Assembly: GCA_905178155.1 (NCBI GenBank)
Contig: CAJINV010000002.1
Span: 2,378,162-2,442,161 of the forward strand
Direction of reading: 5' to 3'
From: Amoebophrya sp. A120
Lineage: Eukaryota > Protista > Dinoflagellata
Length of the DNA stretch: 64,000 nt
Shown here: one piece after another, positions 860 through 64,000 of the stretch
Layout: every line of letters begins with the position of its first letter
Numbering within the stretch: the stretch's first letter is position 1
The notes under the pieces: generated by a model
Databases searched by the model: none
What the model was told of the DNA's origin: nothing
The model's input: only the letters and a program-made list of their open reading frames with translations
Position numbers and translations under genes: made by a program

Positions 860-987
860 GTATAAGTAATCGCATGACAAATTAGCTCAGCATGACAAAT
901 GGGATTTGTCATGCTGTTTTACCTTGGGATGAAGATTTGTAATGCATGACTGCGATTACTACGAGTGCGATACTTTTGCACAGGATA

Positions 988-3900
988 TACCAGTTAAAAG
1001 CGCAAAACTCAGGCTGCGGGTCCACCTGGTCGCACCGTTTTTTCCTTTTGCACTCGTACGCCAGCGACTTGTCCCGGTTGATGAAGACCCCCCGGCAAAA
1101 TTTGTTTTGCGTAGTGTCCCACGGGTTGATAAGTTTCGGGGCATCCGCGTCAGACAGTGCTAGTTCTCTGGTTTGATGTTTCTTGGAAAGCAGTGTGGCG
1201 GGCGCAGCTTCTTCTGTAATTCCTCCATCTTCCGTGGAGCTTCCAGTCGTCGTTTCTGTTTTGCTCGAAGCAGAGCCTCCTCCCCTCCCCCGTAAAAAAC
1301 ACTTTTGCAATGTCCCGATTACATCTTGACTCTGCCGGATCGCCAAACCCCCCGAATCGCCACTATCATCCTCACAGAAATATTCGTTTTGCACGGCTTC
1401 TAAATCCGCGAACAAATCGTCGATCAACTGCCCCTTCCAGGATTCCACCTTGGCGATGAACTTGTCTTGCTGTTTCGGCGTAGCTAAATGTTCTTTCTCC
1501 ACAATCTCCTCCCCCTCTTTTTCCACTTCCTTCTCCGCCGGACCGCGGTTCAATAGCTCCTGGTACGCGAGTTCCAACTTCTCCTGGTAAGACAAAGTCG
1601 AAGTGGTGGTCGTGGTAGTTGTCGTGGTTGTTGTGTTCATCTGTAGTTCCGCGTCCAGCATTTCCGACGGGTCTTTGATCTCCCTGGGCGTGGTATCGCA
1701 AGAAAAAACTGCTTCACTGTAAACTTGTAAAAATGCAGAAAATGCATCGCAGCAGTGTTTGTGTTGCTACACATGTTGCAAGACAAGTGATTTTTAGCCG
1801 TGTTTTCCCTTGGCATCCTCGCATGGCAAGTTTTCTTCGTCACGTGTAACGAACTTGTGATGCAAAACTTGCAAAATCATCACAGTGAAACACTGTTTTC
1901 GTACGATACGTGGCCAAGGACTCCGTTCCTTCCTCCGTTGTTTTCCGTACCAAAAACCACTTCTGCTTGCAGTCCGGCTGCTGCGCCCCGTATTCTAATT
2001 CGTACATCGCGCACTTCTTTATCCCTGGGGAGACAACCTCATCCAGTCCGTTTCCGCACTTGTAGCCGAGGGTCTTTTCTGGATTGACGAAAACCCCGCT
2101 GCAACCACTCTCGTCCAATAGACATTCGTGCATGAGAGCGCGAATGTTGGTAAAGAGGCTGGGGGCTGTACTGCCGAAGACAAAAGGCTTTTCGCAGTAG
2201 TATTCGCCCGTACTCGCGCCGGTGATGTTCAGTAAAGTTTCCACGTTGGCGAAGGAGGGAAGCTTGGAGGTTAAGTTGTTTGCCGTCACTGTGACGTTGA
2301 TTTGCTGCTGGGGAGAAATACTGGGAGAACTGTCAGGATCGGAGTCAGCTTCTGATGCTTCATCTGGAGACGCTTTATTTTCTGCCGGTTCTGTTCCAGC
2401 TTCCGCCGGTTCCTCTCCCGCCGCAGCGGGCGGGTCTTGCTTGCTCTTCTGGAGTTGCAGAAGTTTCGTGTTTGCTAATGTTCTACTTGATTTTCGTGTA
2501 GTTCTCTTTTTCCTTTCTAACTTTATCGCCTCTTCCCTATCTGCCTGCAGCAAGCTCAGCAATTCCTTTCTCCTTTTTTCCAAAGTGGCCACTTGGAACC
2601 GCAATGTCTCGGTTTTGTTTTGTTGGGCTGCTCCTCCTTGGGCGTCTGTAGGTGACTGTTGATCTGTTTTAATATTTCCTGAAGTTTCGTCATTTTTCGA
2701 AGCTGCAATCGCGGCTTTCTCCGCCTTTTCCCTCCTCTCCGCAGCGGCCTTTCTTGCGCTCTTCACAATGTCGTTCACCGCATCACGAAAACTGGCCCAG
2801 GCTTGCGACTTTTGCAACTCCTTTTCACTTTTTTTATTTGTCGCGAACCCCTTCGCGTCCGGGTCCGAGCCAGAGCCACTATCACCGTCCCCCATAGAAC
2901 TCATCTGCTCCAACTGCCCCGCTAAATCCGGGTTATCGAGCATGATCCCCGGGAGAAGAGTATTCCAAAACTGGTACTGCGCGTTGTGCGGCTCGAGCTT
3001 CGTGCCCGTTTCGGTGTCCAGGAGCACTTGCAGGTTGTTTTCGTCGTAGTCCATGGTTAGAATGGTCGCTTGTTTACTATCTTTGAAAGTTATAGGAGGA
3101 CCACCTGGGTCGTCGGACACCATCGTGAGGATTTTCGGGACTAAGAATTCGAAACCGCGGAATTGTTCGTTGAGATCCAGAGCCGTAGAGGTAGAAATTT
3201 TATCTCCGATATTTTGTCCTGGCTGTATCCTCTGCACCGCCGCCCGGAGAATGACCGTCAAGATGCTGCGCAACCGCGAGACGTGCAACACGATCTCGGT
3301 CGGGGGTTTATTTCCAGTAGTTGGTTCCGCGGTACTTCTTTGCCGATCAGTTTTTCTCGCGGCGAGTAAAGCAGTTGTTATCGGGTCGTCGGTACTCGAA
3401 GCCGATACGTCGCTTATCTCATCTCCTGCATCCTGCTCACCGGATATCGCTGTAGTTTCTGAATCTGAACCACTAGCACTCCTCGTCGCATTACTGACCG
3501 CCGCGGTTGAAGATGACGATGAGCTTTCGTTTCTTCCCATAAACCCGTGCTTTTTCAGATAGTCCTCCATTTTCGTGTAAAAAGGTTGGTACAGCTCCAT
3601 CATTTTACTCCCAATGTTCCGCTCTCCCGCGACAATCATTTGGTGCCGGTGCCGGTACACATGCACGTTGATCACCCGGTGATCTGGGATCGCCGTCGCT
3701 TTCACGGCGGAAAGAACCGAGTTTCGCAGGTGCTCGTTGACGCACGTGTTGAACTGTTCCAGCTGAATCGCTTGCGTGAAAAGGGCTAGTTGCTGCGTAG
3801 AAGAAGATTCTGCTTTACTACTACCAGGAGCAGGCGGGAGATCACGACTGTTTTCTTCTACATCACCCCCTTCCAGGCTGTCCACATCATGATCCTCTTC

Positions 3901-6900
3901 TTCATCAAACCCCGTTATCCGGTAGCAAATGTCCACATCCAAATCCCGCCCAAAGCCGTCGTTCCCCAGCCCCACCCGCGCGAACGCCGACTCGATGGCC
4001 TGCGCGGTGAGTTGTGTGGCCGGAGCGGAGTTCGCGGTGGCACTCCCGTCGATTTTTCGGCTGTACCCGAATAAGGGGTTCGGGTACATAGAATCCGGCG
4101 TGGGAATCAAGCCTGTCAAAGCGTTGCTGCCGCTGAACGTACCGCTTCCGGGAGCGGTTAGTGTACTGGGGAACACCTGACTCGGGTACCAGTCGGTACC
4201 AACCGAAGTTAGTCGCGCTGGCAACCCTTGCACACCGGCGATACTGGGGGGTAAATCCGCGCGAATGGAATCATATGCACTGCAAAAGTATCGTACTAGT
4301 AGTAAGCGCAATACAAATTAACTCAGCATGACAAATGGAATTTGTCATGCTGTTTTGCCTTGTGATGGAGATTTGTAGTGCATGACTGCGATTACTACGA
4401 GTACGATACTTTTGCACAGGATAAGTCCCCGTCGGAGCTGCTGTACGCTTCTTCGGAAAAGGGGCCCGGGAGTTCGTCGAGATCGGCTTTGGAGGTGGAA
4501 ACTGGGGAGAGAAGACCGTCGGTGAAATCGAAATCGGATTTTGAAGCGGTGGAGGATGAGCTAGAGCTTCTGCCTAAGCCTATCTCACTCCCAAATTGCG
4601 TTTGCATCTGCATCTGCAGAAATTGCAAGTACTCCGCGGGTGGTGGCTGGCCTGCAGCTGTCCCTGTTGCACCCACATCACTAGTATCTCCAGATGCGCC
4701 GGCCGACACCGACGCGTCATTTGGTGCTCCTGCACTGCCATCACCATCGCCACTGTTTGTTTTCTCCAGCGTCTCGCTTGCCACCACCGGCTCTTTGTCA
4801 CCGTTGTCATTTTTGGACATCTCCACCCCACAAACCGCCTGACCAATGCGGATTCTAGGACCGCCGGGGTTGTTGAGGGTGCTACTACTTTTCGTGCTGC
4901 CTCTTGATGTGCTCCCACGAAACTCCTGTTGCCTCGCATCAAACATCTGCATCAAAGCTGCTGGCGCGCCAGCAGCTGGATCTTGTTGATTTGTTTCCGG
5001 GAACCCAAAACTCGTTTTCAAAACCGGTTTTGCCGGCTCCAGCTGCAACTATTGAGAGGAAAAATCCTCCCTCCCCATATCGAAAGTGTATGTTTCCGAA
5101 AATTTGTCTTGCTGATTTGAGACCACAAATCACGTCTGTCTTGCAAGAAGACAACTCTACAGGCTCTGCCGCATTATGCAGGCGGTTTGTGATGTTGTTG
5201 GGCCTACAGCATAGACGTTTCTCTTGCTAAGCGCCTAGGCCGAAACCTCTCTACTCAGGCTTCGCAGGAGCTTGTAGTCCTCTACTGCAAGACAAGCCTG
5301 ATTTGTATACGCAAATCCAGCATCAGAAACTTCCGTTTGATATGGGGAGGGGGGATTTTTCCTTGTGATAGCAACCCTAACTTCTTCGACGGAGGTTTTT
5401 TACTTGCTGATCCGTTTTCGTTGTCCCCATTCCCCTTCTCCTGTTGCTCTTGGTAGTGCTGTGACAGAAACTTCTGCATCTCTTCCTGCTTTATTGCCCG
5501 ATCGAAGTTCTTCTCCATAATGGATCGGTGATTCACGTATGCATTGCAAATATGTCAGTCTGGGTCTGGAAGAGAGCGCTTGTTTGGCATGCATGTTTTG
5601 CATGACCCATGATGTCTGTGATGCATGCCCTAGCATCACAGATGTTTTGAGGGCTTCCTCATCCCTAATCCGCATGACAAATGCCCTCGTCTACTCCGCG
5701 TAGCAAGAACAGGACTTCGCTTGCTGCTCATGCAATACAGTTGTTCTTTGGAATCGAAACGCAGCATCACAAGTTGTATCCTTCCAGACCCAGACATATT
5801 TGCAATGCATATCACGTGCGTGCTGTTGATTTGGTTTTCGTTTTGGGTAAAATCAATCATCAGATCCCCCGTGATTATGACCTGCAAAAGTATCGTATTC
5901 GTATAAATGCATTACAAATTTCCTCAGCATGAGAAATAAAATTTGTAATGCGGATCCGGATTTGCCTTGAGAACAAGATTTGTAATGCATGATTGCAATA
6001 CGAGTGCGATACTTTTGCACAGGATAGTGATCTCGTCCGCACGATGTACGTCGTAGGAGCAGAAATCCACGATCGCACGGGGCTGTCGATTTGTAGCACT
6101 GCGCTGCATCGGTTCTCTCTGTACAAAAGCGTCCAACGCAAATTGCACCGCGAGAGAGATTATCAAATGTAAAAATGTCTGGGTCTGGAAAAGTGTAGAC
6201 TTGTCATGCACATTTTCCATGACCCATGAGGTCTGGAATGCGGGACTTAGCATGACAGACTCTGCGGAGTCTCTGTCATGTCTATCCTGCATGAGAAACT
6301 CCCTTCCAACTTGGTCAAAAGTGTACAGCTTTTGGCACTCATGCAACAGAGATTTTTGCATGCTTCAGATTTACCATGACAAGTTGCAATCTTCCAGACA
6401 TCCAGACATTTTTGCAATTCATAGAGATTTTTTCGCAGAAAATCCTCCTGTCGTTCGGTGCGTATCCTGATTAAAAACGTCCCCACACCAGAGTCAAGAT
6501 GGGGACTTTGCAACACAAACCTAGGAGTTTTGGGAATCACGCATGACAAGTTTCAGTCCGTAAGGTAGTGCAAGTTAGCAAGGAAAGCCGCATCACAAAT
6601 CGATCTGCTGATCCTGTTTACAGCATTACAAGTTCCCAAACACGATTGAAAATGCCTGTCATGGGGTTGCGCATCACAACTATTCCTGTCATGGCAAATC
6701 TGCATGACAACTCTGGGGTGGGGACGTTTTTACTCAGGATAGTGCGTCAGCGAGGTTCTGGATTTTCAGGGATAAAGCCCCCGTGAGCCGGTTTTTCCCG
6801 TCGTTTTTTGTGCATTGGTTCAGTTTCCTCTCCAGCGTAATAGCGATTCGGTCAATCGCGGCCTTGCGTTGGTTTTCCAGTCGTTCTTGCTCGGGGGTCA

Positions 6901-9900
6901 GGTAGTTGGTGGGGGTGATATTGTCCTGGTCTGACCCTGCCGGCGTCGCGCTCGTGCTTGTGGTAGGTGGTGGAGGGAAAAATATTTTCAACGACCGGGT
7001 GTCGTGTGGTGTTAGTGAGTCTTGCACTGACTTTGTCAACGCGCTTCAGGAAATAAGTACTTCAGCATGATAAAGGCGAAACCCAACTTCTCTTCTCCGC
7101 CGCACTGAATCTGCAAATTTTTGCAACACATGCAGGTGAAATATTAAACGTGCAACTAGTACTAACCCGCCTGTTGAACAAATTTTCCCATCCCATACAG
7201 GTGTCGTGAAATTCAACAGCAGTGCCTGCGCTGTCACCTGATCGGAGTTCACAGGCATTAACGGGAGCTGCACCGGATACTCCTTCGCTGTTGTTGACTT
7301 TTCTTCTCCTTGTGCACTGGTGTCACTTCCTCCCGCATCCTCTTTTTCACGTCCCAACATCTTCGTCCTCGTGGTCTCCTCTCGCAGATTCCGCAGTGCT
7401 TCGGTGAAGGAAAGGAGCGCTTGCGGTTCTTTATTCGGGTTAATATTTGGTACCGATGGTCGTACTCTTGATGCAACCTGCGAAGCAGTAGAATCTGATG
7501 CACCTTTCATCGATGCAGTATGAATTTCAGAAGCTTTATCCCCCACGCCCGCACTTGCTGGTATCGTGGTTTTCGTCCTCTTCGCAGCCAATTTTGCGCC
7601 TGCCTTCGGATCTGACACAGCAGCGTCCGTTGGTTGTGGTGGTATTTCGTTGCAAACAAACTCCCCTACCGGTGACACGGCGGAAGAATATGTGCTGTCT
7701 ACCGACGTTTTTGAGCTGTTAGTAATCTTCTCTGCCGTTGCGTTAGTACTGTCGGTGTCGCCCGACGCGCTACCACCGGTACTGCTACCCAAAACATCAG
7801 TATTCTGTGGTTTAAAGCTGCTACGGTCGAAAAACTGTTGTCTTTTTCTCACCGCGTTTTCCTCCAATTTTGCGTTTACCAGCGCCGGTTGCATATCAAA
7901 TGTAAAAATGTCTGGGCCTGGAAACTTGTGATGCTGGGTGGCGTCTCATGATGAGGCCACAAGTGCTGGCTCAGCATGACAAGTTTCTGAGCTTCTAGGT
8001 GTTGCCTACTTATTCTGCATGACAAACTGCGTTTCTGCATCACAGAAAAATGGAGCTCCTGGGTAACGTGCATGACAGACTTAAGAGTCATGCCAGACAA
8101 GCATGACAAACATGCACTCTTCCAGACCCAGACATTTTTGCATTTGATATTGCAACTTCTCGAACAACTCCTCATCCTCAGCACTCGCGGCTCCGTCTTG
8201 CGAGGAGTAGCTGAAGTCCATCCTTTCCTCCAGCTCGCAAGCGCTGCAGACCGCCGCGCTCTTCTGCCAACAAACGTTCTTCGCCCGTTCCGGGCGCAGG
8301 CCGCATATGAAATGTAAAAATGTCTGGGTCTGGAAGATTGCAACTTGTCATGCTAAATTTTTTTTTTTTTTGCTAGGCTTCTCGCGTGTCGATTTGAAAT
8401 TCTTTTGATTTTTCTTTTGGTTTTCTTTTGATTTTTCTTTTGATTTTTCTTTTCATTTTTCTTTTGATTTTTCTTTTGATTTTTCTCTTGATTTTTCTCT
8501 TGATTTTTCTTTTAATTTTTCTTTTGATTTTTCTTTTTGTTGATATTTTCTTTTGATTTTTTGGTATTTCTTTTCGTTTTTCCTTTGTCTCGACACACAA
8601 AAAGCGGTGGGCGATTCACGAAGAAGTGCGCGGGTGTGCTCGGCGTTCCCGTGGCCTTAGGCCCTACCTTTTGGATAAAAGCTGCCGCTCCTCCTCCCCA
8701 CGTCTCTTCCTTTCGCCATTGCCATCACTCCATTCATGGCCGACAGTTCCACTTCTCGCACGTCATCTGCATCCCTCCACAGAGATTTGTGAATCCTCTT
8801 CGGCCTGCGCAGTAGCAACGAAAAAGCAGTGTGCCAACCTGGCGGAGATTTACGCACTGACGCCTGCCCCCACATCTTGTTCTTGGAAGGATGTCCAATA
8901 TTTACACTTACATCTTGATATCATGGAAAACATAGAGAAATCAACTATTTATTTCTATGTTGGTAAAAATGAAAGCGGAATAGAATAGAAAGCAAACTAT
9001 ACTACTTTGGTGCTGCAGGCAACTAATAGTTCTGAAGACAGGGCAGAAAAAAGCTCTTCTGTAGTGCAAGGAGGTCAGTACTAAGTAACTTTCCTACAAA
9101 ATCCTTGGAAATTCAACTACTCAGGACTATATACGACTCATTTTTTTTGCTCAACAAGTACTACCTTTTCACTACTACCACCTCCTTTCTCCATCTCAGC
9201 CTGTCCCTGTTTTTATTTCTTTTTGAATGGAAAGTTACGAGCAACAGGCAAAAAAACGCCTGTATTTAGGACGAACAGCAAACTACGAACCTGTCTGCGA
9301 AGTTACCAGGTGCTACGATGACGAATTCACGAATGACGACTTATTTTCTTTCGCGCGACGATTAGGCTGAGGAATGGGTCTGCTTAAAAATACCAGGTCA
9401 CTGTCCATGTGTTTACTAGTACCAGGGGACCAGGCAGCCACGTAGCTCATTAGGTACAAGGTTACTCTATGCCGCTGATTGGTACAGTTCTATTCTAAAT
9501 CTTCAGCGATGAGCAAACGCTCCACCTAGGTCTGGCTTTATGGGGTTCCCTTTATATTGGTGCACGTTGCGGGCTTCGCAGCAGGGACCTGTTGTTTTAT
9601 GCATTTTTGATTTTCATTGAGTTGTTTGCTCGAGGATGTTATCTGACTTAGCATCATGATCTCAACTACCATCTATATGTTCATCATACACAAGCAGGCA
9701 CTAACAAAAAACACGAACCTCCGATCTGCAAATCTATTGCCATCAAATAGCTCCATAGTCATTATTTTTATATACCTGGTATCTTCCTTTCTTCACTTTC
9801 CCCCTCCTCAGCCCAGCTTTTCGCACGATGTAGTACTGGTCGTTTTTCTTTTTCTTTTGGGATCTCGTCGCTTCATAAACAAAAAGGAGAGGATTTGATT

Positions 9901-12900
9901 TGCAGAGAACCTGGGGAATTTAATTTTTTGTGACTCAAGGCATCTAGTGGCGCGTCAATCAAGATACTTCATCGGAATGGCATCAGTAAATACCTTCAAA
10001 TTGCTCATTCTATTTAGTTTCTTATACACATTGTCGATCTTGGTGTGCTGCTTTGGAATTCGTTCCATTGTGTGCCCTATTTCATCGACACATCCCTTCA
10101 CCCTATCTCGAAAGAACTCATGCGTTAACTTTGCCTCTTCGTCCACTATAAGACGCATGATTTTCTGCGGCTGTTTTAGTAAGCTGCGCCCGAACTTGTC
10201 ATGCTAAATCTGCAGCATGCAAAAATCTGTGTTGCATGATTACCAAAAGTCGCCCAATTTTGACCAAGTCGGGAGGTAGTTTCTCATGCAGGATAGGCAT
10301 TAGAAAGCTCTCGCAGAATCTGTCATGCTAGCTCCGGCATTCCAGACCTCATGGGTCATGGAAAAACTGCATGACAAATCGCGCATTCTTCCAGACCCAG
10401 ACATTTTTACATTTGATACCGCAGTAGTCAAACGCAAACAGGTCGAAGTCGTTGGAGTCGTAGGGGTTGCAACCGGAGCTGACGTCGTCGAGGGTGTGGA
10501 AATACTCGTCGCTGCATATGCAATACAAATTTCCCGTACATGTACAAAATGCATCACAAATTTCACCAACCTAGAAGAAGTTACTTGTCATGCTGAAGAG
10601 GTTTGAAGGAAAAGTTTGTCATGCGGAAGCCACATTTGTACGTCGTGTACAGGAAATTTACTGTGGATACTGCAGGCGAGATCTTCCTCCGGTTTGTTGA
10701 AATACCGGTACACAATGCTGTCGTACATGAAACTGCACACGTCGTAGCGTTATGCAGTGCAAATCTGTCTGGGTTTGGAATCCTGTGATGCTGATTTGCT
10801 GCTGATTGCAACGCTTGCCACGGCAGCCAAGCATGACAAGTTTTTGAAACGCTTCCTGATGTCTAGCACGCATTACAAATTGCGTTTTCGCATGGAAAAG
10901 GAAGTGGCTCTTCTGCTGCTCACGCAACACAGATTTTGATTTTCTAGGAATGCTGCAAAATACGCATATACAAGTTCAAGTTCCACTTTTCCAGACCCCG
11001 ACATATTTGCAGTTGATAAGCGTAGGCAATCCCGGCCCCAGTTCGAGCACTGCACCGACTTGGTGTCGCTGGCGATGCAGCCCTGTCCGCACCGGCCCAT
11101 ACAGGAGTTGTCGGAGAGAATCGTGTCGATTGCGAAATCCTGCACGTCCACGTCTTCGGGAGCAAGAAACTTTGTAGTCATCATGGCCCTTCTGCTCTCC
11201 TCCTGTTGCAAAAGAACCACGCCTTCAAGTTGATCACCACGACCTCCTGGCGCTCTTGTTGTATTAGCCGACGAGGACGAGACGCTGCTATCAAGTGTAA
11301 AAATGTCTGGGTCTGGAAGATTCTGACACTTGTCATGCACGTTTTGCATGAGCCATGATGTCTGTAATGCATACCCTGGCAATACAGATTTCTTCAGGGC
11401 TTCTTGATGCCTATTCCGCATGACAAACGCCTTCTCAGCGTAGCAAAAATTGCATTCCCTTTGGTACTCATGCAATACAGGTTTTTTTGGAATCCAACTG
11501 CAGCATCACAAGTTGCAACCTTCCAGACCCAGACACTTTTACAGTTGATAGCTACTTGTCGTCGTAGAATTGTTCGCACTGTCGTCTTATCAAATGCAAA
11601 AATGTCTGGGTCTGGAAGAATTTGTCGTGCAGATTGTACATGACATGTGACGTCTGTAATGCATAACCTCGCATAACAGATTTTTAGCGGGCTTTCTGAT
11701 GCCTATCCCGCATGAGAAGTACCCTCTCCATGTAGCACAAACTGGACCCCTCTTGCTGGTCATGCAATACAGATTTTTTTAGAATGCAGAGACAGCATCA
11801 CAAGTTGCAATCTTCCAGACCCAGACATTTTTGCATTTGATACGTCTGTGTCTATCTCCGCGCCCGCATCCGCCTCCGTCGGTGCCGGGGTTGTGATGCT
11901 GCCATTATCGTCATGTTCTTGGCGCGGCGGGGGAAAAAACTTCTTCGCGACTTGCACCGAGTTCACGGGCACCTCTTCCAGGCCCCAGCACTCTATCCTG
12001 AGAAAAAAGTGTTACAGTTTGTTACAGACTCTGATGGAAGACAGGCAAGACAGACGACCTTTGTCATGCAGGAAATGCTTGCCAGCTTCATTTCATTCGT
12101 GTTTTCCCTTATAGTCTGCGCATCACAGGTTTTCTTTGCCATGCCGGCGACTTTGTGATGGAGAAAGAACTCCAACAAATGTGTAACTGTAACACTTTCA
12201 TTTTCCTGTGATACACTCTCCGGCCCGCATGGTGACCTCGTAGCAGATTTCCGGGCAAGAGCGTCGAGATGAAGCAGCAGCGTCTTCTTGCTTTGCATCG
12301 GAAAGATCCTCCGTCGTGGTTCCACTTGGCGTGGAGGTCGTTTTCCCGAGTTTTCGCCCCGTTTCGATGCACGGCCCGTTGAGTTCGCCCAGGTGGGGCA
12401 GGCCCAACTCCGGCCCGGTGAATTGGACCACGTACTCCCGGTCATTCTCGTAAAAGTCCGTGAAAGGTTCTAACCGCTCGATGCTGCACACGGAGTTGGT
12501 GTTGGTATGTGATGCAGTGGTTCCATAATTATTTTGATCACCATCCCCAGATGAAAACTCGTTTTCTGAAGAGGAAGAACCCCCAGATTTGTTGTAGCTT
12601 GCCGGGATCAGAATCGACTCTGACGCAGAAGTACCGGAGGTGGTGGAGAAGAAACCACTAGGTGCTTGTTGCGCATTTGAACTTCTTCTTGATCTTCGAA
12701 ACCCGTCGAACAAGAACCCGCTGCTTCTGGTTTTTCTACTTCTCTTGTTCGAGTACGTGTGATCACCTCCAGCACCCCCATCAGCGAAGCTTCGTGCTTG
12801 CTGCAAAAGGCTCGTCTGTTCACCGTTCTGTTGTCCGCCTGCTTCTTCCGTGGCTACATCGTCGTTTTCTAACTCTTCTGCTGCTGGGTATGCGTTGGCA

Positions 12901-28361: not shown

Positions 28362-28366
<5 letters not shown>

Positions 28367-28396
<30 letters not shown>
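28367..28396 (+). repeat. (AG)15 microsatellite
   Basis: Seen directly, upstream of the methyltransferase gene. Confidence 0.95.
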
Positions 28397-53900: not shown

Positions 53901-55961
53901 TCGTATCCAACACCTCCACCGTCGGATTCCGCACGGAGTGTTTCTTGCACAGCAAAACCTCGACTTTCGATTTGGTTCCGGTGGTCAAAACAAACCTGGG
54001 AAAAGCCCGGTCAATCATCGGGTCGGCGGCGCAGGAGAGGCACAGCCCAATCACGTCAATTTTCCAGAGCTGAATCGAGGGTTGCTCCACGTTCAAAACG
54101 ATGCACTCGTACAGCCCGGCGACAATCAGAAACTTGTGGTTCACGGAGAGGCAGGAAACCTCCTGCTCCAGGATCCTTCGAGAAAGGGAGGATGAGCTCG
54201 TCGTCGTAGAAGGGGTGGTTATCGTTATGGTTTTGATATTATGGTTGTGATCACCTTTATTCTGATGCATGTTGCTGTCCAGCACCGGTGACGCCCCCGC
54301 CGCGGGAGATGAAGAAGCATCACCATAGACAGCAGCTCCTTCGTGTACTAGTTCCCCTGTAGTTCCTGTCACCGACCCTACTAGACCGCCACGCGGAGAC
54401 GAGGCGGTTGACGCGGACACGACGCTCGCAGCAGTAGAGGCCGCGTCGTGCTGCGAGAGTACTTCCCCTTGTGCTGATATAATGTGGTGTCCACGTGCAA
54501 TAGAAACAATTGATGTCCCTGTAGTATTTATCCCGACCCCTTGCTCCGACGCGGTTGTGGTTTTCCAAATCGAATCCACGAAGTCGGACGGCACCTATCC
54601 TGAGTAAAAACGTACCCACCCCAGAGTTGTCATGCAGATTTGCCATGACAGGAACATTTGTGATGCGCAACCCCATGAGAGGCATTTCCAATCGTGTTTT
54701 GGAATTTGTGATGCTGTAAACAGGATCAGCAGGTCGATTTGTGACGCGGCTTTCCTTGCTAACTTGCACTACCTTACGGACTGAAACTTGTCATGCGTGA
54801 CTCACAAAACTCCTAGGTTTGTGTTGCAAAATCTCCATCCTGACTCTGGTGTGGGTACGTTTTTACTCAGGATAGCACCGGCGTTTGGTTTTGCGAGGAA
54901 CTGGAACTCTGCTGGGACGCGGTTTCGGCGTTATAAGCGCCCTATCCTGTGTAAAAACGTCCCCACCCCAGAGTTGTCATGCAAATCTGCATGCTGAAAA
55001 TGTTTCTCATGCGGAGCCACATGAGAAGCATTTTCCAGGTGTGTTCTGGAATTTGTCATGCTCCAATCGGCATGATATAGTAGATCTGTGATGCTGCTGA
55101 GCTAGCTCAAACAGCACTACACTACGAGCCCAAATTTGTCATGCAAAACGGCCAAAACTTGTGGATTTGTCTAGCCGAGTCCCGATCTTGACTATGGGGT
55201 GGGGACGTTTTTACATAGGATACGCCCTGCTGCTGGTTCTTATTTGGGACGTCTTGCAGCACATGATCAGCTGGAGGCGTGGAAGACGACTCCAGGTTAG
55301 CAGTGCCCAGCCTTGTCTGGCGCTCTACTTGATCCTCGTCCTGCGCAAGCACTACATTGCCTGCCAGGTCACCACCACTCCCGACGACCCCAGCACTCCC
55401 AACCGTTGGGAAAAAAACTTGGTGCTCCCAGAGCATGCGAAACCGGGAGTGGGTTAGCAAGTGCTTCACGTTTTTGCTCGTGCGCTGGGAAGTTTGCGAA
55501 GTAGATGCGGCTGTTGTAGTAGTGGAGGTGGGAACAGCAGCTGCATTACTGGTGATTGTCGGTGTAATATTTTTATCCCGCTCCAAAACCACCGGACTTG
55601 CGCCCGGAATGAGCGACGTGTCTTCAAACAGCTGCACATGCCCCGAAGCGCGACCGACCGCGACGAAGGCTTTACCTCCCAGGCTCACGCAGGAAACGTA
55701 ATCAGGGCTGTTGAACAAAGGTCGCGGAGAAGTTGTGAGGTTTGTTCCCTGCCGATGCTCCTCCCGCTGCTGTTGTTGTGTTTCCGCAGCTGTAGGGCTG
55801 CTGGAAGCTGCGCCAGACGTGGCAAGTCGTATCTCGTTATCGGCATCAGTATCGTCTACACTTGGTCTCGCAATGTCCTTGATGCGCAGGTAATCCACAC
55901 GAGGCAGCGGGTCTTTCTCCCCCGCCTGGCTGTGTGCAGGGGGGGGTCGGGCGACGGACAT
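47982..55961 (-). CDS. VPS41: Vacuolar protein sorting 41 homologue (HOPS subunit; WD40 plus clathrin heavy-chain repeat)
   Basis: VSCVSLGGKAFVAVGRASGHVQLF, WGQLQIAAWTTEKGVKLLD, RRDVLEDALFL...YEEAILL, ECLALLYEKKQQFQPAL and YIEHAIGLCKEHELYDALVFLLSKAG...DVEKAILF...ELWE match Vps41 architecture. Eight introners. Last exon uncertain. Confidence 0.8.
48748..48956. mobile_element. Family C introner
   Basis: C-type TIR, opposite orientation to 1694-1908; TSD actgc. Confidence 0.9.
49012..49277. mobile_element. Family K introner
   Basis: Homologous to 31610-31871; TSD cagtt/cagtc. Confidence 0.85.
49693..49957. mobile_element. Family A introner
   Basis: A-type TIR; TSD ttccc/ctccc. Confidence 0.85.
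50598..50758. mobile_element. Family B introner
   Basis: B-type TIR; TSD tgacc. Confidence 0.9.
53007..53311. mobile_element. Family L introner
   Basis: tattacagtgaaaaatgcccc...ggggcatttttcattgtaata; TSD agatg. Confidence 0.9.
53550..53703. mobile_element. Family B introner
   Basis: B-type TIR; right end ATC instead of ATA; TSD cagca. Confidence 0.88.
54596..54874. mobile_element. Family E introner (reverse complement of 6463-6741)
   Basis: E-type TIR; TSD gcacc. Confidence 0.9.
54943..55222. mobile_element. Family E introner
   Basis: E-type TIR; TSD cgccc. Confidence 0.9.
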
Positions 55962-56539
55962 GTTGTAGTTTTGTGACGATTTACAGTTCCTCTTGTGCAA
56001 GAACTACTTTAGAGGTTTGGGACCGCGATTGGAAGTTTCGATATCTCTCAACCACCATTTTAAAACCGGAGAAGCGTCCTCCGTTCTTCTGTCTAGACCA
56101 AAGTTGGTGATAAAGATTTTCTGCCTAAGTAGATCTTCGACGCAGCTCGCTCCAAGCAAGGAGCGACGCACTTGATAAGATATCTGTATAGGAACTTTCG
56201 CAGTGTTTGGTCGGGCGAAAGGAATTGAAAACGTCCTAGATGAGCCACTGATGGTGGAAGAACACAAGCACACTTTCGCAAAAAATCAGTGCGCCCGGAG
56301 ATGGGAGTGCCTATTTTTGGTGCACTGTGGTAACGGAAACGAACCAGGTTTCATCTTGCAGTTGCGAGAATGGAACTTCAAACATGACCTCGCAACACAA
56401 AAAATACACTATGCGGCGACGTCGCCTCTTTTTTCATCTTCTACGGTGCGCAATAGTGCCTGGTAAGGAGGAGGACAAAATTACCCTCTGCAATGGATGC
56501 GAGAGCGAGTACAAAGGACCATAAACGAAGTAAGTAGCT

Positions 56540-58507
56540 CTATCTGTTTTTCTTCAATAAAGTAAAGCCATGGACCTCAGACGAAGTAGTTTTACCCAGA
56601 TGGACCCTGCTGGCTTGCGACGGTCCTCCTCGGGGGAGCGATTCTTGCTGTCCCTGATTTTGATTGCTATTACCACGCTGATGTCCTCCATCGTCTTTCT
56701 CGTCCTTCCGATTACCCCCACTTGCACCTCGTGCTCCACTTCGATCTCCCAAATGTTTCTCCTTTACCCGCAACTGCCACGTCAACGCGATGTGCTTGAC
56801 CGTGTGATGCAGCTTCTCGTGGTGGAAGTGGTAGCCGAGTAACGCGCCGACGACACACCCGATGAAGTGCGCCCCGTGGGCGGTTTGTACTTCCGCGTTG
56901 CTCCAGGGAATGTTGTCGGCAGAGGAGTTACCATTTCCCGACGAAGCGGAAAACCAGCTGTTCACATATTTCATGTAAAACCCCGTGTACAGGCCGGATT
57001 CCGCCGGCCGCGGACACCAAACGATGAACTGAATCACGAAAGTCAATGGTATGCGTCCCGCTTTCAGGTAGATCAAACTGTGCAGGATGATCAACGCAAA
57101 CACAAACCCGGAGCAACCTAATTGCCCGGCATCCGGATGTCCGTTGGTCAGGTGGTAAACGCTGCAGGAGACCGAAATCCAGAAGAACAGTTTCAACAAG
57201 CCATACGCGCCGAATTGGTGCTCCGCGGTCGGCCCGACCAGCATCAAATGCGTCAGATTTTGTCGCATGTGCTCCGCGTTGCCATGCGCGAAACTCTGGG
57301 TGAAGATGCGGAGGTAGGTCTTGTAATCTTTCACATTCGTTAATTCCCACGGGTAGAAGGTGAAATAGTCCATTTTTTGGTCGTCGTTCGCATAGTAGTG
57401 AACGAGAAGGCAGAGGAGAGAAAACAGCAGCAAAAACGGAATGTCCAGGTCCCAAACGCGAATCAGTGCCGCGAGGAATCGGGCGAGGAAGTTGCGCTGG
57501 ATTTGAGGTCTATGTGGAAGATGATGTTGAGCAGGATTTATTTCCTGGTCCAAGCCCTGTCGTTTCATTCTTTCACCGGAATCAACATAATTGCCTCCAC
57601 CGTTAGATGAACCGGACGGGAAAAAATCCAAGTGAGTCAAAACCCAGTCCGCGATCCTTTCCGGACTTCGGTGCGCTCGCTTCTCGGAGAACACGACTAT
57701 GTCTCTGATAAAATTGTGGTTGTGGAATTCCAGATGCTCTAAAAAAGCGTCCAGCTTCTGCTCCGCGTACCTGTGTGCTCTTTCTAACCGATAGTCTACT
57801 TCTGTTCTTGCGGTTGTCGTGGCTCCTGTGGTAGAAGTAGTAGGAGGCTCTGCGGCTGCTGCACTGGCATTTATTCTTGACACCTTCTCCTCTGCGTTAT
57901 ATTGAAGAAGGTCACGCTCTGTTGTAATTCTGGTCACGGAAACGAGAGTTTGCGCCTCCGGTAGCTCTACTGCGAGCTTTTCCCGTCCACTTGTTGCGTT
58001 TGCCCTATTTGCATGGTCCGCGATGCTGGCACTTGGTCGTTCATGTAGTTCCGGAAGATTTTCTTGAGAAAAAACCCCACCAGGAGGTTCTTGATCTTCT
58101 CCCCGCTGAACCTCGACTCCGGTGTTCTCTCCTTCTCCCGTTCGCAGGAACAAAACGTCCTCCTGGTTTATTTTCTCATCAACACCGTCGGAAATTTCCG
58201 GGGCGCGATTAAAATCTTCTTCCTCGTCCGGTGGTAACAGCTTCGGTAACTGCACCCTTTCTGTTTTCGAGTCGTCGCTATCATCCATGATATCCCGGGT
58301 CACCCGAATCCAGGCGTTCTCCGGCGGGGGGCGACTGCTGCGCTGCGACGTAGTTTTGAGCAGGCTTTTTCGCAGGGGGGTAGAGGGTCGATTCTCGTTT
58401 GAGTGGTCTTCACCGACTTCTTCTGGGGTAGAAGTTGTACCAGGCGCTGTGAGTGCACCTGCACTCGTCCTGCTGTTCGTTCCATGCGTTGTAGTGGGTT
58501 TGGACAT
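56540..58507 (-). CDS. Rhomboid-family intramembrane serine protease, intronless, long N-terminal extension
   Basis: 655-aa ORF with RIFTQSFAH, HMRQN, catalytic GCSG and AHFIG motifs and several TM segments. Confidence 0.88.
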   Translation of the reverse strand: MSKPTTTHGTNSRTSAGALTAPGTTSTPEEVGEDHSNENRPSTPLRKSLLKTTSQRSSRPPPENAWIRVTRDIMDDSDDSKTERVQLPKLLPPDEEEDFNRAPEISDGVDEKINQEDVLFLRTGEGENTGVEVQRGEDQEPPGGVFSQENLPELHERPSASIADHANRANATSGREKLAVELPEAQTLVSVTRITTERDLLQYNAEEKVSRINASAAAAEPPTTSTTGATTTARTEVDYRLERAHRYAEQKLDAFLEHLEFHNHNFIRDIVVFSEKRAHRSPERIADWVLTHLDFFPSGSSNGGGNYVDSGERMKRQGLDQEINPAQHHLPHRPQIQRNFLARFLAALIRVWDLDIPFLLLFSLLCLLVHYYANDDQKMDYFTFYPWELTNVKDYKTYLRIFTQSFAHGNAEHMRQNLTHLMLVGPTAEHQFGAYGLLKLFFWISVSCSVYHLTNGHPDAGQLGCSGFVFALIILHSLIYLKAGRIPLTFVIQFIVWCPRPAESGLYTGFYMKYVNSWFSASSGNGNSSADNIPWSNAEVQTAHGAHFIGCVVGALLGYHFHHEKLHHTVKHIALTWQLRVKEKHLGDRSGARGASGGNRKDEKDDGGHQRGNSNQNQGQQESLPRGGPSQASRVHLGKTTSSEVHGFTLLKKNR

Positions 58508-59498
58508 AATTGTACTTGTTCTCTTGAGAAGAAGAACTTCCCGTGTTATTGAACGCGATACTTTCGCAGAAAGTATGAGAGGCGGGCCGACAAATAAATG
58601 TATTAAATGGTATTATAAAAAAGTTGTTCAATGAATATAGAAGCGATTTTTGAGTGAATGAAGACATGAGGTCCTGCATTGAAGATGTAAAATTCCGGGC
58701 GACCAATAGTTTTACTTTCAGGAGACACGACCAATAGTTTTACCTTCGTAAACTGTCACACCGACACGACCGAGGCGAGCAGCTATCTAGTAGTACACCT
58801 CCGAGGCTTGTAGAAATAAACCGAACATTTTTCCGAAAATCAAAATAACTCGACCGAGGCGACCGAAAGCTATATCAACAAGATACATCATTTATTACCG
58901 AGGCCGATCGCAGTAACGGTGGAGCATTGAGGGTTACCAAATGTTGAGAATCTCCGAGTTTAGGTGTAGGAGACAAGCCGAACATCACTTCTGTAGTACT
59001 GACCACCTAGTGCAGAGAGATGCATCACAACCGACCAACACATTTTTACCTGAACAAGGGATAATGCACAAGAAAAACCGCACACCTCACGCCGTGTTCG
59101 AGGCACCGCTGGAAAAAACAAGCGCATCTAAAAATTTATCGTTAGATTTGATATTTCTCGCAACTACTGCGTACAGGTTGAATATCGACAAGGCCGATTT
59201 CGAAAGCGTAACATTTCGTTCCATAGTTGTTCTGTATCTGCGCTTGCAGCTTTGAAGTATTGTATTGTATCCCTCAGAGTTGTGCTGGTGTCGCATCAAA
59301 CTGTTTTAATATCGTAGGAGAAGGCCGCGCGTTCGTCGGGAGGGGTGGGAAGCTCGGGTCAACACAACACACGTTGTGTTTTTCATTTTCGTGGTGGGTT
59401 GGTACAAAATGAAAGGAGTTCTTATTTTTCGGCTGCTTTTGTACTGCTGGGCTGAAGGTTTAAATGGGAACAAGTATGCCACCTCCGACGCTGACAAC

Positions 59499-60445
59499 TT
59501 ACTCTTCTTCCGGATTCCAGGGCGGCAGATTGTCTTCGATCGCACCTGGTGGGATTGCGATTGGATTTGGATTGCACAAAAATAGCATTTGTTCGTGATC
59601 TTCATCCTCAGTCATGCATCCGCGACGGAAAAAAACTGTGTACTCAACAAATGCATGACAAAGACCAGAGAAACAAAACATACCCAAGATTTTTGGTGCG
59701 TCGCAGCCGAGGACCTCGCCCACTTGCTTGCCACCCATGTAGAAAAGAAACATTGGCTTTGCCTTTGCTTTGCACGCCAGGTATTTTTCTTCAATTGCTG
59801 GCACAACGGATAAATCCATCTGGTTTTTTTTTTAAAAAATTTGTCATGCGTACAACTTGCAGGTAAAGTCTATTGATATAGTGGAAACGCTACGTTACCT
59901 TTCATGCAGATGCAGATCGAGACATCAAATGTGATATCGTGTACCATGTAAAACTGCCCTCGCAGTTCCCAAAAATACACTATGCATTGCAAACGTGTCA
60001 GAGTCAGGAGGTCACGGCCAGATTCGATATTTAGTGGCATTTTCAGTACTGAGAGATCGTGCAAGACAAACGCAGCTCTCTGGGGTGAGACATAGATTGT
60101 AAAGCTAAGCGTAGTTCTGCACATATCAAATCTCGTAAAATCTCAAGCGCCCTGACAACTTCGCGATGGATATCCGTGTTTGCTGCCAAGGACTTGAATG
60201 TTGGTTCCATCTGTGCGCAGGGTCCGTACCATTGGTGGTACCTGATCATTTTTTTGTTGTGTCTTCATCTTCAATAGGCTTCTGGATGACAAAGCCGATG
60301 TCTCATGCGTCAATAATGCATCACAAATTCCCAGAAACAAAAAGTACACGTCCAGCACGATTAGCCTCTTCTCGCTGGCAATGACTGACTCGAAGTCTTC
60401 CTGCGTGGCGATGGCCTTGATGAGCTTTACCTCCTTGCCCGCCAT
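59499..60445 (-). CDS. Thioredoxin-like protein of the NME8/TXNDC3 / outer-arm dynein light-chain type
   Basis: Spliced: MAGKEVKLIKAI...LIVLDVYHQWYGPC...KPMFLFYMGGKQVGEVLGCDAPKIL...AIEDNL. Introns at 60242-60347 and about 59545-59683 are GT-AG. Confidence 0.8.
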
Positions 60446-61063
60446 TGTGGACGGAGTAGGAGTTCAAATTTAAAAGAGAAAAATTTATCGGCTGTCTTAG
60501 CCCCTAGCTTTGGCTATCGAATAGATGCTTCTCAGAAGATACGTGAACAAGAGTTTACGTGGCACAGCGTTGCGTTGAGCCGATCTAGTACAAACGAGAG
60601 AGAGGAGCTGCGGTAGAGAATTTCAAAGTGCAACACCGTGAAAGACATGGGATTAGAGTCGACAAAGACGCTATCGACCCGATGTTTTGTTCACTCATCT
60701 ATCTCTCCTCTCCGGGACGTCCCGTTCCTTCTCGCGCTCGTTTATTTATAGGGGTTTTCGCTCTCTCTATCTGCAGTTCGATTCGCAACTCTGCAACCGA
60801 GAATCAGTTTTCCTCGGACTCATGTTCGTCGGGGAGCTTAGTAGACCATCAAGATGGAGATGCACAAGACCATGCGTCATGGTGCTGACGTACTAGAAAA
60901 ATGAAGTCAAAATATCAGCCGACAGAAGACCGCATCTACGAAACCCGAACGCGAACACTCGAAAGCAGCAGGCTAGCCTAGGCGACGCAAGAAAGTCTTT
61001 CACTTCATTTTCGAGAGGGAGACAGAGCTCCCGAGGGACTACTTCGAGGGCTCATAAAGAGAT

Positions 61064-62110
61064 CTAGCAAGCAGCCTGCCCGCGGCCGGGCCCGTGCGGC
61101 ACCTGCGCGACCGACCGGAACGCCGCACGGCGAATCGCCCAGGCCGCGCGGGCGACCGATGTAAGGCTCTGGGGCCGAGGGGCTACGCAGGCGGCCAGCA
61201 ACTGCAGGAGGCACAGCAAGGGCCGCCGGAGAGCAGCAGGCGCATGAAGGGCGGGGGGGAGCAGCGGGCGCAATGCCAGCACCCTCCAACGCGCCGAGGC
61301 CGGCGGCCCCGCCCGCAGAAGCGGCAAAACTGCCGAGGGCCGCCCCGCCCCGGGCGCCCACTTTTGGGCCTCGCCCGGACGCCTGCGGCGCGCCCCGGAC
61401 CCTGCCGGCCCGAGGAGCCGGGGGCGCCCAAAGCGGTCGCCCAACTTTGAAACAAAGGGAGGCCGGGGGGGCCTGCGTTGCCGGCGGCGCGGTCTGTGGT
61501 CTCGCAGTTTTCCCCAGCACACTGCGCCGCCGGCCGGCAACGCTTCGCAGCAAAATTTTTGCAGCGGGGCCCCCCCCCGATGCACACCCGGGGAGTCTGA
61601 GGGGCGGGAAACCCGACGCACACCCAAAAGGCCCCCCGGCCCCCCGGCCATCTTGCTCGCCCCCCCCCTGCTCCTGGGTCTGCGCGCGCTCTGCGCGCGA
61701 AGCAAGGGGCCTCCATTCCCAGCGGCACGCCCGCCGCTGTATAGAAACAATTGGCCACGCCGCCCGCGCCGCAGGTACACGACACGGCCGAGCACCCGCG
61801 CGGCGGGCCTTCGGCGGGGGCGCGCACTCTTCCGCGGGCATCTGCCGCGCGACTCGGCGCGGCCGGCTGGAAACCGCCAGGCAGGCAACACCAAACGCGC
61901 CCCCTTCGCATCAGCTCGCGCGTGTGTCGCGGCGCACCTTTCTTGTCCAGCGCCAACAAAACCCGCGGCAGGTTCACACGGCGACCGCTACCTTGAACTG
62001 GAACAGCCACCAGCTCGCGGGCAGCTGGGGGGGGGCCAGTTCCTCTTGGTTTCCCACCCCCTGCCGGCTAGGGCGGGACTCGGATGCCCCAGAGCCTTTT
62101 CCTCGGTCAC
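61064..62110. repeat. Intergenic very GC-rich island, possible non-autonomous element
   Basis: Abrupt compositional shift. On the minus strand, a GC hairpin (gcccggccgcgggc) lies about 10 nt before CTAG at 61064-61067. Confidence 0.4.
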
Positions 62111-62349
62111 AATTTTACGCAGTAGCTTCATGAGCCTCTGTTCATGTGGAACGCGGCATTTACTTGGCCCAAAACAACGATTAGAACACAGATAGTCTAG
62201 GTCTCCTGCGCACTGCTGCTGCATGCGTACAGGCGTTTGCCGCACACTTTTCAAAGCACTTACATGCGTTATTTGCTGTCGCTTTCTACTTTCAGCATAC
62301 TTTTCGTTTTGGAGCTAGATTCTCTTTTCCGATGAATCAACAAACCCCA

Positions 62350-64000
62350 CTAATCCATCGCATTCACATCTTCGTAAGAACTCAACGGAATTTTTTCATG
62401 ACTACTCGCCTTCCCTCCCCCACCACCAGTACCTCCTACGACGGAAGCCTGCTTCACAAGCTTCTCCTTCTCTTTCACGACCGGAGGTGCGGCTCTAGTA
62501 TTACAACTTGTTCCGGTCGTGTCTTCTTCACTTTTAGAAGTTGACATTTGTACTCCCTTAGCGGTTGAATCCGAACCATCACCAACCTTCGCGTTCTCCA
62601 CGTCGTCCATATCGATTCCCCGTTCCTTCGCAACCTCTTTGATCCACTCGTCCATGGATTTTTTGTCGTCGCCAAACTGTTCGTATGCATTGCAAACATG
62701 TCGGCGTCTGGAAATATTGCGAGATTTGTCGTGCTAGTCTGGCATTTGACTCTGAGCTCTGTATTGCGTGGCCACAAAGTAGAGTTCCACTGGTCTAATA
62801 TTTATCATGCATCAACGCAGTTTCTCATGCGGACTACACAACACAGAGACACGAAAAAATCTGTCATGCTTGGCGGTGAATTAGTACAGTGTGCTTACCA
62901 AATATAGCCGCCGGGGCGGAGGTAGTGAGGTTGTGGGCGTTTTCTTGCCGGCCATCGCCTTGGCCGCGGCCTTGCTTTTTTTGGGCTCGCCATGCCGCCG
63001 TGAGTAACGTTAGGCCGCACGGTATGGCGGCCGCTCGATAAACGTCGCAGCCTTTGGCAAATCTCCGAAATTCCTTTCCGAAAGCTAGCCCCCATGCTAT
63101 GGAGCCGATCCGGGCGCCACGGGGGGCGCCCAAAAAGCGAAGGAAAATCGGGCCCATAGCATGCGGATTGGCTTTGCGCGTCCGGGGCGCTTTTTCTTTT
63201 TCGCGTTTCTATATTTCCCTCCGGCGCTTTTTGCAAAGCTTCCCAGGCTCTGAAACCGGCGAAAAGGCGGCCGCTTTCGCGGCCGCCCAAAATGCTCCAA
63301 AATCGCGGCCGTGCCATGCTGTTTCGCTGTTCTGACTTTGGGCGAGTTTTTTGCGCGCCCCTTTTTGGGCGGCCCAAACCGCCAGAAACCAAGGCGGTGG
63401 GCGCCGCAGAAGGGCGCCCCTTTTGCCGGCTCCCCTGCGTCGTTTTATCAAGTGCGAATCGATAGTTTTCGACCGGGCTTGTTTGACTTCAAAGCCCCGG
63501 CCGCTTAATAATTGGAAATCTTTTATGTCAAAGAACGCTTCCGGCCGCTTGAAAACTGCCGGTCGTTTTTCAGGGTATATGTCAAAAAAACTCCCCGGTT
63601 AGAACCGTTCGGTGACCTCACTACATACTATTCGCTGACCTGCATTACAAGTTTCCAGGCGCCGACCACATATTTGCAATGCATATTTCGTTTTTCAACA
63701 AATGCTCGTTTTCCGGATCCTCCTCCAACCGCGGGATGGCGATCATGTCCTGCAGTCTCTGCATCTCCTCCTTCGTTTCCTTGGTGAAAATCGTCTCCAT
63801 CTGCTGTGTATGCATTACAAAAGCATCGCACTAGCACTACGTAGAAATCGCATGACAAATTCTGTGAAGAACAAAAGTGGGATTTGTAATGCTGAATTAG
63901 GTACAGAAACTAGATTTGTCATGCGCGGCTGCAATTTATACGTAGTACAATACTTCTGCAATGCATACTGCGTCGCGATCTGCTTCCACTGGCCCTTGTA
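62350..64000 (-). CDS. 3' part of an unknown acidic protein gene (5' end beyond window)
   Basis: QMETIFTKETKEEMQRLQDMIAIPRLEEDPENEHLLKNE joins in frame to QFGDDKKSMDEWIKEV after removing two introners. Confidence 0.65.
62684..63685. mobile_element. Family A introner enlarged by a nested insertion
   Basis: tatgcattgcaaacatgtc...catatttgcaatgcata; TSD gttcg/tttcg; frame restored. Confidence 0.85.
62898..63628 (-). mobile_element. Helentron/HINE-like non-autonomous element nested in an introner
   Basis: Asymmetric sub-terminal inverted repeat gtagtgaggt (62922-62931) / acctcactac (63615-63624), plus a small GC palindrome at 62908-62919. Boundaries approximate. Confidence 0.55.
63809..63967. 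mobile_element. Family B introner (divergent)
   Basis: B-type TIR; TSD ctgtg/ctgcg. Confidence 0.85.

Follow-up and report, generated by a model that had tools for sequence, protein, structure and literature searches.

Why does one short motif recur inside introners that are otherwise unrelated? The question is raised by a 64,000-nucleotide stretch of the Amoebophrya sp. A120 contig CAJINV010000002.1 (the window), in which genes are read on the minus strand and are broken by short elements. A sequence-only reading had proposed that the octamer TGT[CGA]ATGC and its complement run through every introner family, either as an array of protein-binding sites or as a modular code by whose pairing the intron folds into a hairpin. 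On balance we lean toward the first idea: the motif would form an array of sites on double-stranded DNA, bound by a transposase that the families share or by its dedicated partner protein, which would assemble both element ends for transposition. The observations on which this reading builds are direct: the motif is enriched in the elements, its fixed letters are conserved around one free letter, its copies keep characteristic spacings and distances from the element ends, insertions occur in both orientations, the families share tips and a 5-bp duplication, and even elements without a site are removed exactly from RNA contigs.

A shared site in otherwise unrelated introners

We delimited the elements with a motif-blind finder that looks for TAT..ATA inverted ends next to a 5-bp direct repeat and tolerates one tip mismatch. 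It identified 61 candidates, or 55 outer elements (13,213 bp) once nested ones were dropped; end similarity and RNA joints contributed 12 more for a window total of 67, and the ends of elements 38893 and 48422 were placed partly from the RNA joint. The elements are short and non-coding, with inverted ends, a fixed target duplication, many copies and either orientation, all features of miniature inverted-repeat transposable elements, that is, non-autonomous terminal-inverted-repeat DNA transposons. Their inverted repeats start with TAT, seven variable bases and then As: in a family-weighted profile A reaches 0.69-0.91 at positions 11-14 (the TAT itself is demanded by the finder), and clusters c5, c7 and c10 have no A-tract. 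Beyond TAT and the A-tract at positions 11-15, the terminal repeats differ strongly among families.

In the text parts of PMC7789003 (the PMC sources cited here are each represented by parts of their text), A120 introners are described as non-canonical introns with inverted ends (TAT, seven variable bases, AAA), short direct repeats and many families, without an internal transposase. Because the ends of the window elements fit this signature and the nearest named protein relative comes from Amoebophrya sp. A25, the elements are, judged by sequence, A120-type introners. That relative (56% identity, among 3 matches) belongs to the exon-encoded protein of frame 19900-20691; this single protein places the host at genus level. 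Cluster sizes agree with those of published A120 families (about 106, 150, 210, 255, 278, 305 and 320 bp).

Counting reverse complements, the window contains 209 exact copies of TGT[CGA]ATGC, the first at 872 and the last at 63917: TGTCATGC occurs 107 times, TGTGATGC 57 times and TGTAATGC 45 times. The T-form, TGTTATGC, occurs only 4 times, and the variants TGTATTGC and TCTCATGC occur 25 and 18 times. Elements from the motif-blind finder contain 168 of the 209 exact copies, and the full set (67 elements plus a half-element at the window start; 16,490 bp) contains 191, or 11.6/kb. Beyond the elements lie 9 copies in 29,990 bp of coding DNA (0.30/kb), and 8 in 14,784 bp of other non-coding DNA; a GT-AG intron has 1, and the secondary inserts (2,574 bp) have none. 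The motif is thus rare in exons, as had been proposed, and its density in elements far exceeds a composition-matched background: dinucleotide shuffles of the elements yield 4.3±2.2 copies (maximum 11 of 200 shuffles), and 4-let shuffles yield 30±5 (maximum 44). Coding and other non-coding DNA lie slightly over their own shuffles (9 versus 2.2 and 8 versus 1.4), with at least two such matches in decayed elements. Probable decayed elements outside the list of 67 lie at 18515-18771, 19277-19676, 33026-33088, 45113-45430 and 59620-59880, two matching clusters c6 and c0 by sequence and the others judged by eye; they account for several of the motif matches counted as outside elements.

The same pattern is found in a second set of sequences, obtained by searching 16 of the 64 parts of a metagenome-contig collection with the family A end pattern. 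This gave 144 stretches and 141 loci totaling 554 kb, overlaps included; family A and young copies are over-represented in the set, its copies are up to 95% identical to window copies, and its species may differ from the window's. Here the motif-blind finder identified 353 distinct elements (88,340 bp) with 1,058 exact copies (12.0/kb) and 9 T-form copies, and loci DNA without element homology has 96 exact copies in 425,510 bp (0.23/kb; overlapping loci counted). An inner site is present in 351 of the 353 elements, including four clusters not present in the window, and is absent in 3 of 65 window elements. The octamer therefore does run through all families, with the exception of a few decayed elements (3 of 65 in the window, 2 of 353 in the loci). 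All five positions of the duplication match in 39 of 65 elements from the window and in 273 of 353 from the loci, both sets coming from methods that favored matches.

Apart from their tips, duplication and motif, the families are unrelated, which bears out the claim that the motif appears where nothing else aligns: with motifs and ends masked, cross-family local alignment scores have means of 12-17 and a maximum of 28, against a null mean of 14 and maximum of 24. The octamer is real, but as a unit it is too short. The full site measures about 12-14 bp and reads AARYY-TGT-[CGA]-ATGC-[not C]; T is also accepted in place of the A that follows the free letter. An earlier suggestion of methylation on a CATG core is weak, because no more than 98 of 194 exact sites, roughly half, contain CATG.

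We also considered whether the element tip is itself a degenerate motif copy; this is so at one end in family B and in cluster c12 but not generally (scores of 4.74 of 9 at offset 3, 4.57 at offset 4 and 4.47 at offset 5). An Rfam search of the window returned 0 matches. Possible resemblances to the mammalian Sox-Oct composite site, apicomplexan AP2 sites, the RBFOX element and segments of U6 small nuclear RNA were set aside.

Spacing, orientation and conservation of the sites

The window elements, in window coordinates, are the following.

Family A (~255 bp), 22 copies, span 5538..49957: 5538-5811, 6161-6423, 7894-8149, 10751-11018, 11289-11550, 11588-11842, 14648-14904, 17981-18233, 18775-19025, 22257-22514, 22848-23150, 24836-25097, 25135-25385, 27599-27862, 29300-29551, 37286-37572, 37973-38254, 38453-38700, 39347-39627, 40104-40388, 40451-40704, 49693-49957
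8306..10418: interrupted family A element with a 1.8-kb poly(A)-tailed insert at 8358-10192, whose 17-bp duplication spans a motif site
62684..63685: interrupted family A element with a GC-rich insert at about 62885-63625
Family B (~150 bp), 12 copies, span 858..63967: 4274-4423, 5876-6026, 10517-10669, 15519-15677, 23191-23345, 23669-23818, 25720-25864, 27377-27525, 33419-33581, 50598-50758, 53550-53703, 63809-63967
Family B, extra partial copy: right half, ending at 987, truncated at the start of the window
Family C (~210 bp), 10 copies, span 1694..48956: 1694-1908, 11994-12213, 15753-15966, 17689-17935, 18282-18490, 25445-25659, 25908-26117, 30836-31044, 43295-43549, 48748-48956
Family D (~320 bp), 5 copies, span 5050..44790: 5050-5370, 17198-17523, 32598-32919, 42937-43247, 44484-44790
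Family F (~280 bp), 6 copies, 3 per orientation, span 6463..55222: 6463-6741, 14959-15243, 37616-37919, 39680-39992, 54596-54874, 54943-55222
Family G (~262 bp), 2 copies, span 31610..49277: 31610-31871, 49012-49277
Single or decayed elements, 8, span 19070..60172: 19070-19242, 26963-27160, 31975-32280, 36890-37221, 38893-39184, 48422-48704, 53007-53311, 59981-60172

Sites do lie in both orientations, as had been claimed, but facing pairs are not the rule: same-direction pairs 31-33 bp apart are the commonest geometry, with 69 such pairs in the window. When one element is taken per lineage, same-direction pairs at 30-34 bp number 11.7 versus 2.05 per draw in the window (null maximum 8 of 600; 9 of 14 lineages) and 12.9 versus 2.5 in the loci (null maximum 8 of 500; 13 of 14 clusters), where the test left out elements above 360 bp, one decayed element and singletons, and two clusters had only 1-2 members. 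The spacing is periodic, with a best period of 10.3 bp in the window (scan-corrected P 0.002) and 10.4 bp in the loci (P 0.012), and it comes mostly from this three-turn peak. The recurrent unit is exemplified at 6671..6709, where two same-direction sites lie 31 bp apart (6671 and 6702) and the last is 32 bp from the element tip. Spacers of paired sites are 34% alike between families versus 31% when shuffled, and 75% alike within a family slot; between families the spacers are thus at shuffle level, and the distance is therefore kept without the sequence.

Position relative to the ends is also restricted, with outermost sites grouping at 32-35 or 38-45 bp from the tips. Copies of family A mostly have 4-8 sites, the outermost usually 33-35 or 40-45 bp from the tips. 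Site order and orientation vary by family. In family F, 29 of 30 sites point in the same direction, yet the family is inserted in both orientations, and all multi-copy families tested sit in both orientations relative to the transcript. In family A (window copies and cluster c0) we further observed that the free letters of the outer sites match below chance (43 of 141 versus 63.9) and that end offsets often differ (33 versus 41-42 bp); the two ends of this family may be functionally asymmetric.

Within families, the fixed motif letters show an identity of 0.868 (a figure that alignment on the repeated motifs may somewhat inflate), compared with 0.509 for the middle letter, 0.540 for other interior positions and 0.795 for the terminal repeats; the excess conservation that had been anticipated is therefore found. 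Site density in the window drops with end decay (rho 0.55 with the terminal-repeat score and 0.35 with the duplication match; n=65). At columns fixed in five neighbors (n=239), copy-specific differences affect 2.5% of motif letters, 2.7% of terminal-repeat positions, 4.6% of free letters and 5.6% of positions elsewhere. The duplication mismatch is 3.7%, which sums two copies, and the motif-letter value is of the same order as expected from it. These figures are compatible with constraint while an element is mobile, followed by near-neutral decay. No duplicated insertions sharing flanks were found among the 353 elements.

Removal from RNA contigs and what may read the site

The RNA evidence comes from two contig runs (X3 and X4) of one sample whose RNA nature is a guess; the contigs skip elements and a GT-AG intron. 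At all 15 listed joints (at least 15 in number, with 3 more existing), located at 36885-55223, the element plus 5 nt is skipped. A single cut position suits every listed joint: on the transcript, the intron begins 1 nt ahead of TAT and ends 4 nt past ATA, irrespective of the dinucleotides. Two joints (36885 and 38888) fix this -1/+4 position exactly. Under this rule the donors of the 67 elements are GT 22, AT 18, CT 16, TT 10 and GG 1, with mixed acceptors. In RNA contig record 11, gaps of 681 and 179 nt equal the exon sums 328+35+318 and 32+54+55+38 with 9 elements removed, each with 5 nt. Removal of element plus 5 nt likewise restores long frames, of 1,482 codons over 7 elements, 1,140 over 12 and 1,924 over 9. 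The raw RNA run X9 placed only 15 reads on the window. The host genes, and two siteless elements that are removed exactly, are as follows.

22169..28208, minus strand: host gene, 1,140-codon frame after removal of 12 elements (+5 nt each); the record 11 exon sums confirm 9
47985..56003, minus strand: host gene with a Vps41/clathrin-repeat region (frame 49847-50596), 1,924-codon frame once 9 elements are removed; at least 8 RNA joints in this span
19900-20691: host gene, serine aminopeptidase-type hydrolase (Pfam scan)
56543-58612: host gene, rhomboid-domain protein (Pfam scan)
39347..39627, minus strand: decayed family A element without an inner motif site, exactly removed (element+5 nt) from RNA contigs
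48422..48704, minus strand: decayed element without a motif site, with weak inverted ends and intact TAT/ATA tips, exactly removed from RNA contigs

In the mechanism we propose, a single sequence-specific protein would recognize the site on DNA, and sites separated by three turns would lie on one face of the helix. A multimer along the 110-330 bp element would bend the DNA and keep the tips together, and an integrase-like (Ginger-type) catalytic domain would cut at the TAT tips, leaving the 5-bp duplication. Since specificity would reside in the tips and the internal sites, the spacers and the remaining inverted-repeat sequence could drift, and one system would come to look like many families. 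After insertion the sites would no longer be needed and would decay, and the element ends would determine where splicing cuts, 1 nt ahead of TAT and 4 nt past ATA. The binding-array idea of the sequence-only reading is supported by a fixed sequence across families that do not align, a free position that lacks T, 31-33 bp spacing over unrelated spacers, set end distances and indifference to transcript orientation. One lead for a source of the transposase is A120 family 38, an introner family of ~810 bp with integrase-like frames that the available part of PMC12130899 annotates as 'Ginger; 5-bp TSD, TA/TA termini' (TSD, target-site duplication).

Several findings weigh against this mechanism. 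No transposase Pfam family was found in 22 window frames, 18 of which had no match at E 0.01, and no autonomous or coding long element was found in the window or in the 554 kb of loci, where only 2 distinct elements exceed 600 bp, both interrupted family A copies. Different terminal repeats usually mean different transposases, a situation just as compatible with a shared host factor. Once the 30-34 bp peak is taken out, the periodicity falls to fixed-period P values of 0.017 and about 0.04, or 0.14 and 0.45 scan-corrected (window and loci, respectively); it is not significant in the four loci-only families alone (scan P 0.61), cluster c7 has 0 of 8 such same-direction pairs, and off-phase spacings (18, 39 and 48-49 bp) are frequent. 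In the loci, site density follows age only weakly (rho 0.15 with the terminal-repeat score and a non-significant 0.08 with the duplication match), and in family A the trend is not significant. In the most diverged copies (n=17), motif letters differ by 5.8% versus 15.0% for the interior; because motif letters stay below the interior rate even in this oldest class, there is room for weak selection on the motif after insertion. Finally, the text parts of PMC7789003 report no transposase in A120 and argue against general mobilization by transposases.

The strongest competitor attributes the sites to a host DNA-binding or DNA-bending protein, acting as a cofactor of several transposases or as a chromatin license, with each family using its own transposase for its own terminal repeat. 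All DNA-level evidence fits such a protein equally well, the families' terminal repeats do differ strongly beyond TAT and the A-tract, retroposon-like inserts often land on a site, and host bending proteins may aid end pairing (PMC10368747). Yet outside elements the motif is near background (0.23/kb), unlike a general promoter or chromatin signal, and the same tips and duplication length in all families point to one catalytic system. We favor a transposase or its partner because the motif is confined to elements with common tips and a common duplication length, and we regard the host cofactor as unlikely, though worth keeping in view. That the motif is instead a functionless relic of a common ancestral repeat strikes us as highly improbable: no binding protein is known and all families share tips and may share ancestry, but between-family spacers are at shuffle level while sites and spacing persist, fixed letters stand at 0.87 versus 0.54 for the interior, and site order and orientation differ by family.

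Two further explanations place the motif's function in RNA. As an RNA or co-transcriptional signal, it would attract the splicing machinery and so stand in for the missing U1 small nuclear RNA, which was not detected in these strains (PMC7789003, text parts). Motif letters are more conserved than the interior at all ages, one GT-AG intron (29634-29795) has a copy, and transcripts are slightly richer in one strand form (332 versus 278 sites). Against this, family F presents opposite motif strands to the transcript depending on its orientation, the alignment-reversed copies (37616, 54596 and 54943) being RNA-confirmed and the forward copies backed only by restored frames; 2 of 27 RNA-supported elements are excised without an inner site and 5 with two or fewer; and B-DNA-like spacing makes no obvious sense on single-stranded RNA. 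We give the splicing signal a slim chance.

The modular pairing code, which would fold the intron into a hairpin and bring its ends together, fares worse still and in our judgment is very unlikely to be correct. In predicted folds of the transcript strand, 92 of 279 sites do find an opposite partner in register, with family B contributing 26 of its 43; pairing is also predicted for a larger share of motif bases than of interior bases (0.66-0.80 versus 0.53-0.64), and cluster c3 shows a marginal excess of matching outer letters (24 of 29 versus 22.2, P 0.04). But the free letters do not co-vary: in the window, matches versus permuted values are 86/274 versus 98.8 for facing, 20/43 versus 19.2 for outer and 7/24 versus 6.6 for close pairs, and in the loci 93/240 versus 116.5 for outer and 41/116 versus 38.7 for close pairs. 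In-register pairing is nearly nil in family C (4 of 39) and family F (2 of 30), the outer sites of family A often lie out of register at 33 and 41-42 bp from the two tips, and a pairing code requires complementarity rather than one fixed sequence in every family. The code fails because the one-way sites of family F insert both ways, two spliced elements have no inner site and the free letter shows no co-variation; co-variation and orientation tests thus reject it. In family B only, the outer sites extend the terminal stem, a local effect.

We separately considered RNA-level selection on a terminal hairpin. Left-right agreement of the terminal repeats exceeds permutation in 5 of 7 clusters (P up to 0.05) and not in c1 and c3; G-U pairs show no excess over A-C (177 versus 165 in 196 elements), and an RNA hairpin role of the ends is not shown.

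In published accounts, Amoebophrya introners number in the tens of thousands, fall into about 2,000 families, move without a known transposase and are spliced without U1. The shared, helically spaced motif suggests a common protein for the families and provides a defined double-stranded bait, as well as a signature for finding the autonomous element in the genome. Setting the DNA-level motif apart from the splice geometry (-1/+4) gives a simple annotation rule and makes the splicing question testable separately. A bolder extension, to which we assign only a small chance, would treat the roughly 2,000 published A120 families as one system, in which a single protein reads the phased internal code and TAT tips, any such sequence is mobile irrespective of its terminal repeat, and the same protein on the gene marks the element for a U1-less spliceosome with a fixed -1/+4 cut.

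Known systems and other features of the window

By analogy, the elements would work like hAT subterminal repeats and the phased motifs of IS1535, and they belong to neither family. As in hAT elements (Ac/Ds1 hexamers, PMC3260210; Hermes BED-domain sites, PMC10368747), short motifs are repeated inside the ends in mixed orientation, asymmetrically between ends and precisely placed from the tips, and are common to non-autonomous elements with little other similarity. The hAT duplication, however, is 8 bp (Ac/Ds, PMC3260210) versus 5 bp here, hAT motifs are 4-6 bp versus 12-14 bp, and Ds classes share one 11-bp terminal repeat where these families share only TAT and the A-tract; binding to hAT motifs has been shown, whereas here it is inferred. 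IS607-family ends (IS1535; PMC6188088) also carry directly repeated, helically phased motifs, 20-60 bp from the end, that nucleate cooperative transposase binding in members with unrelated terminal sequences. That system differs in its bacterial serine transposase, lack of target duplication and one-turn spacing, against the three-turn spacing, inverted ends and 5-bp duplication seen here.

By their termini, the elements are nearest to IS3EU and GingerRoot (PMC10045372, PMC6839031), which have TA..TA termini. Their usual duplication is 6 bp, in contrast to the 5-bp flanking repeats here and the removal of element plus 5 nt at 15 of 15 joints. IS481EU has similar TNT..AYA termini and different duplications (about 4, 15 or 25 bp), and Ginger2/TDD has a similar 4-5 bp duplication (PMC10045372) with TG..CA termini that differ from TAT..ATA. 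A120 family 38 (PMC12130899) matches in both its 5-bp duplication and its TA/TA termini.

The elements themselves are already published; the grammar of a shared, helically spaced motif was not found in print. The internal motif is undescribed in the literature searched, a search beyond which most subscription papers lie. The text parts of PMC7789003 cover only terminal repeats and variable splice sites and do not mention an internal cross-family motif, phasing, a uniform 5-bp duplication or a single -1/+4 rule; its supplement text has 0 matches for two core hexamers, and its Figs S19-S25 may show the motif. The octamer has 0 matches in 12 of 14 supplements of PMC12130899, and 'subterminal' occurs 0 times in the available part of the GingerRoot paper.

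Several additional features were observed within or beside elements. The GT-AG intron placed at 29634-29795 (minus strand) from RNA piece coordinates carries the exact motif once, at 29742, along with a weaker site 29 bp off, and may be an old introner turned canonical. Six retroposon-like inserts with poly(A) or short-repeat tails lie in elements on or beside a motif site (window 8358-10192; L062 6024-6995; L039 3862-4492; L038 571; L019 5314; L064 8961, the L numbers denoting loci), and two others lie away from motif sites (L055 2532; window 62885-63625). Landing on sites may be due to chance because sites occupy a large share of each element. An A-rich 3' region is common to the window insert at 8358-10192 and the one in L064. 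The GC-rich inserts within elements at 20-856 and 62885-63625 have homologs in L075 (about 6912-7771) and L062 (1183-1458), and are probably other mobile elements.

At 34928-36229, a 1.2-kb GC-rich segment lies between ~55-bp direct repeats (83% alike) and has no homolog in the loci; its short inverted arms have motif sites, two in the same direction at 34980 and 35012 (32 bp apart) and one at 36112. The region 61060-62200 is very GC-rich (72% in 61001-62000). Both of its strands carry open frames, two of which were scanned against Pfam and gave no match. At 32281-32530, a short exon segment is tandemly duplicated beside element 31975-32280.

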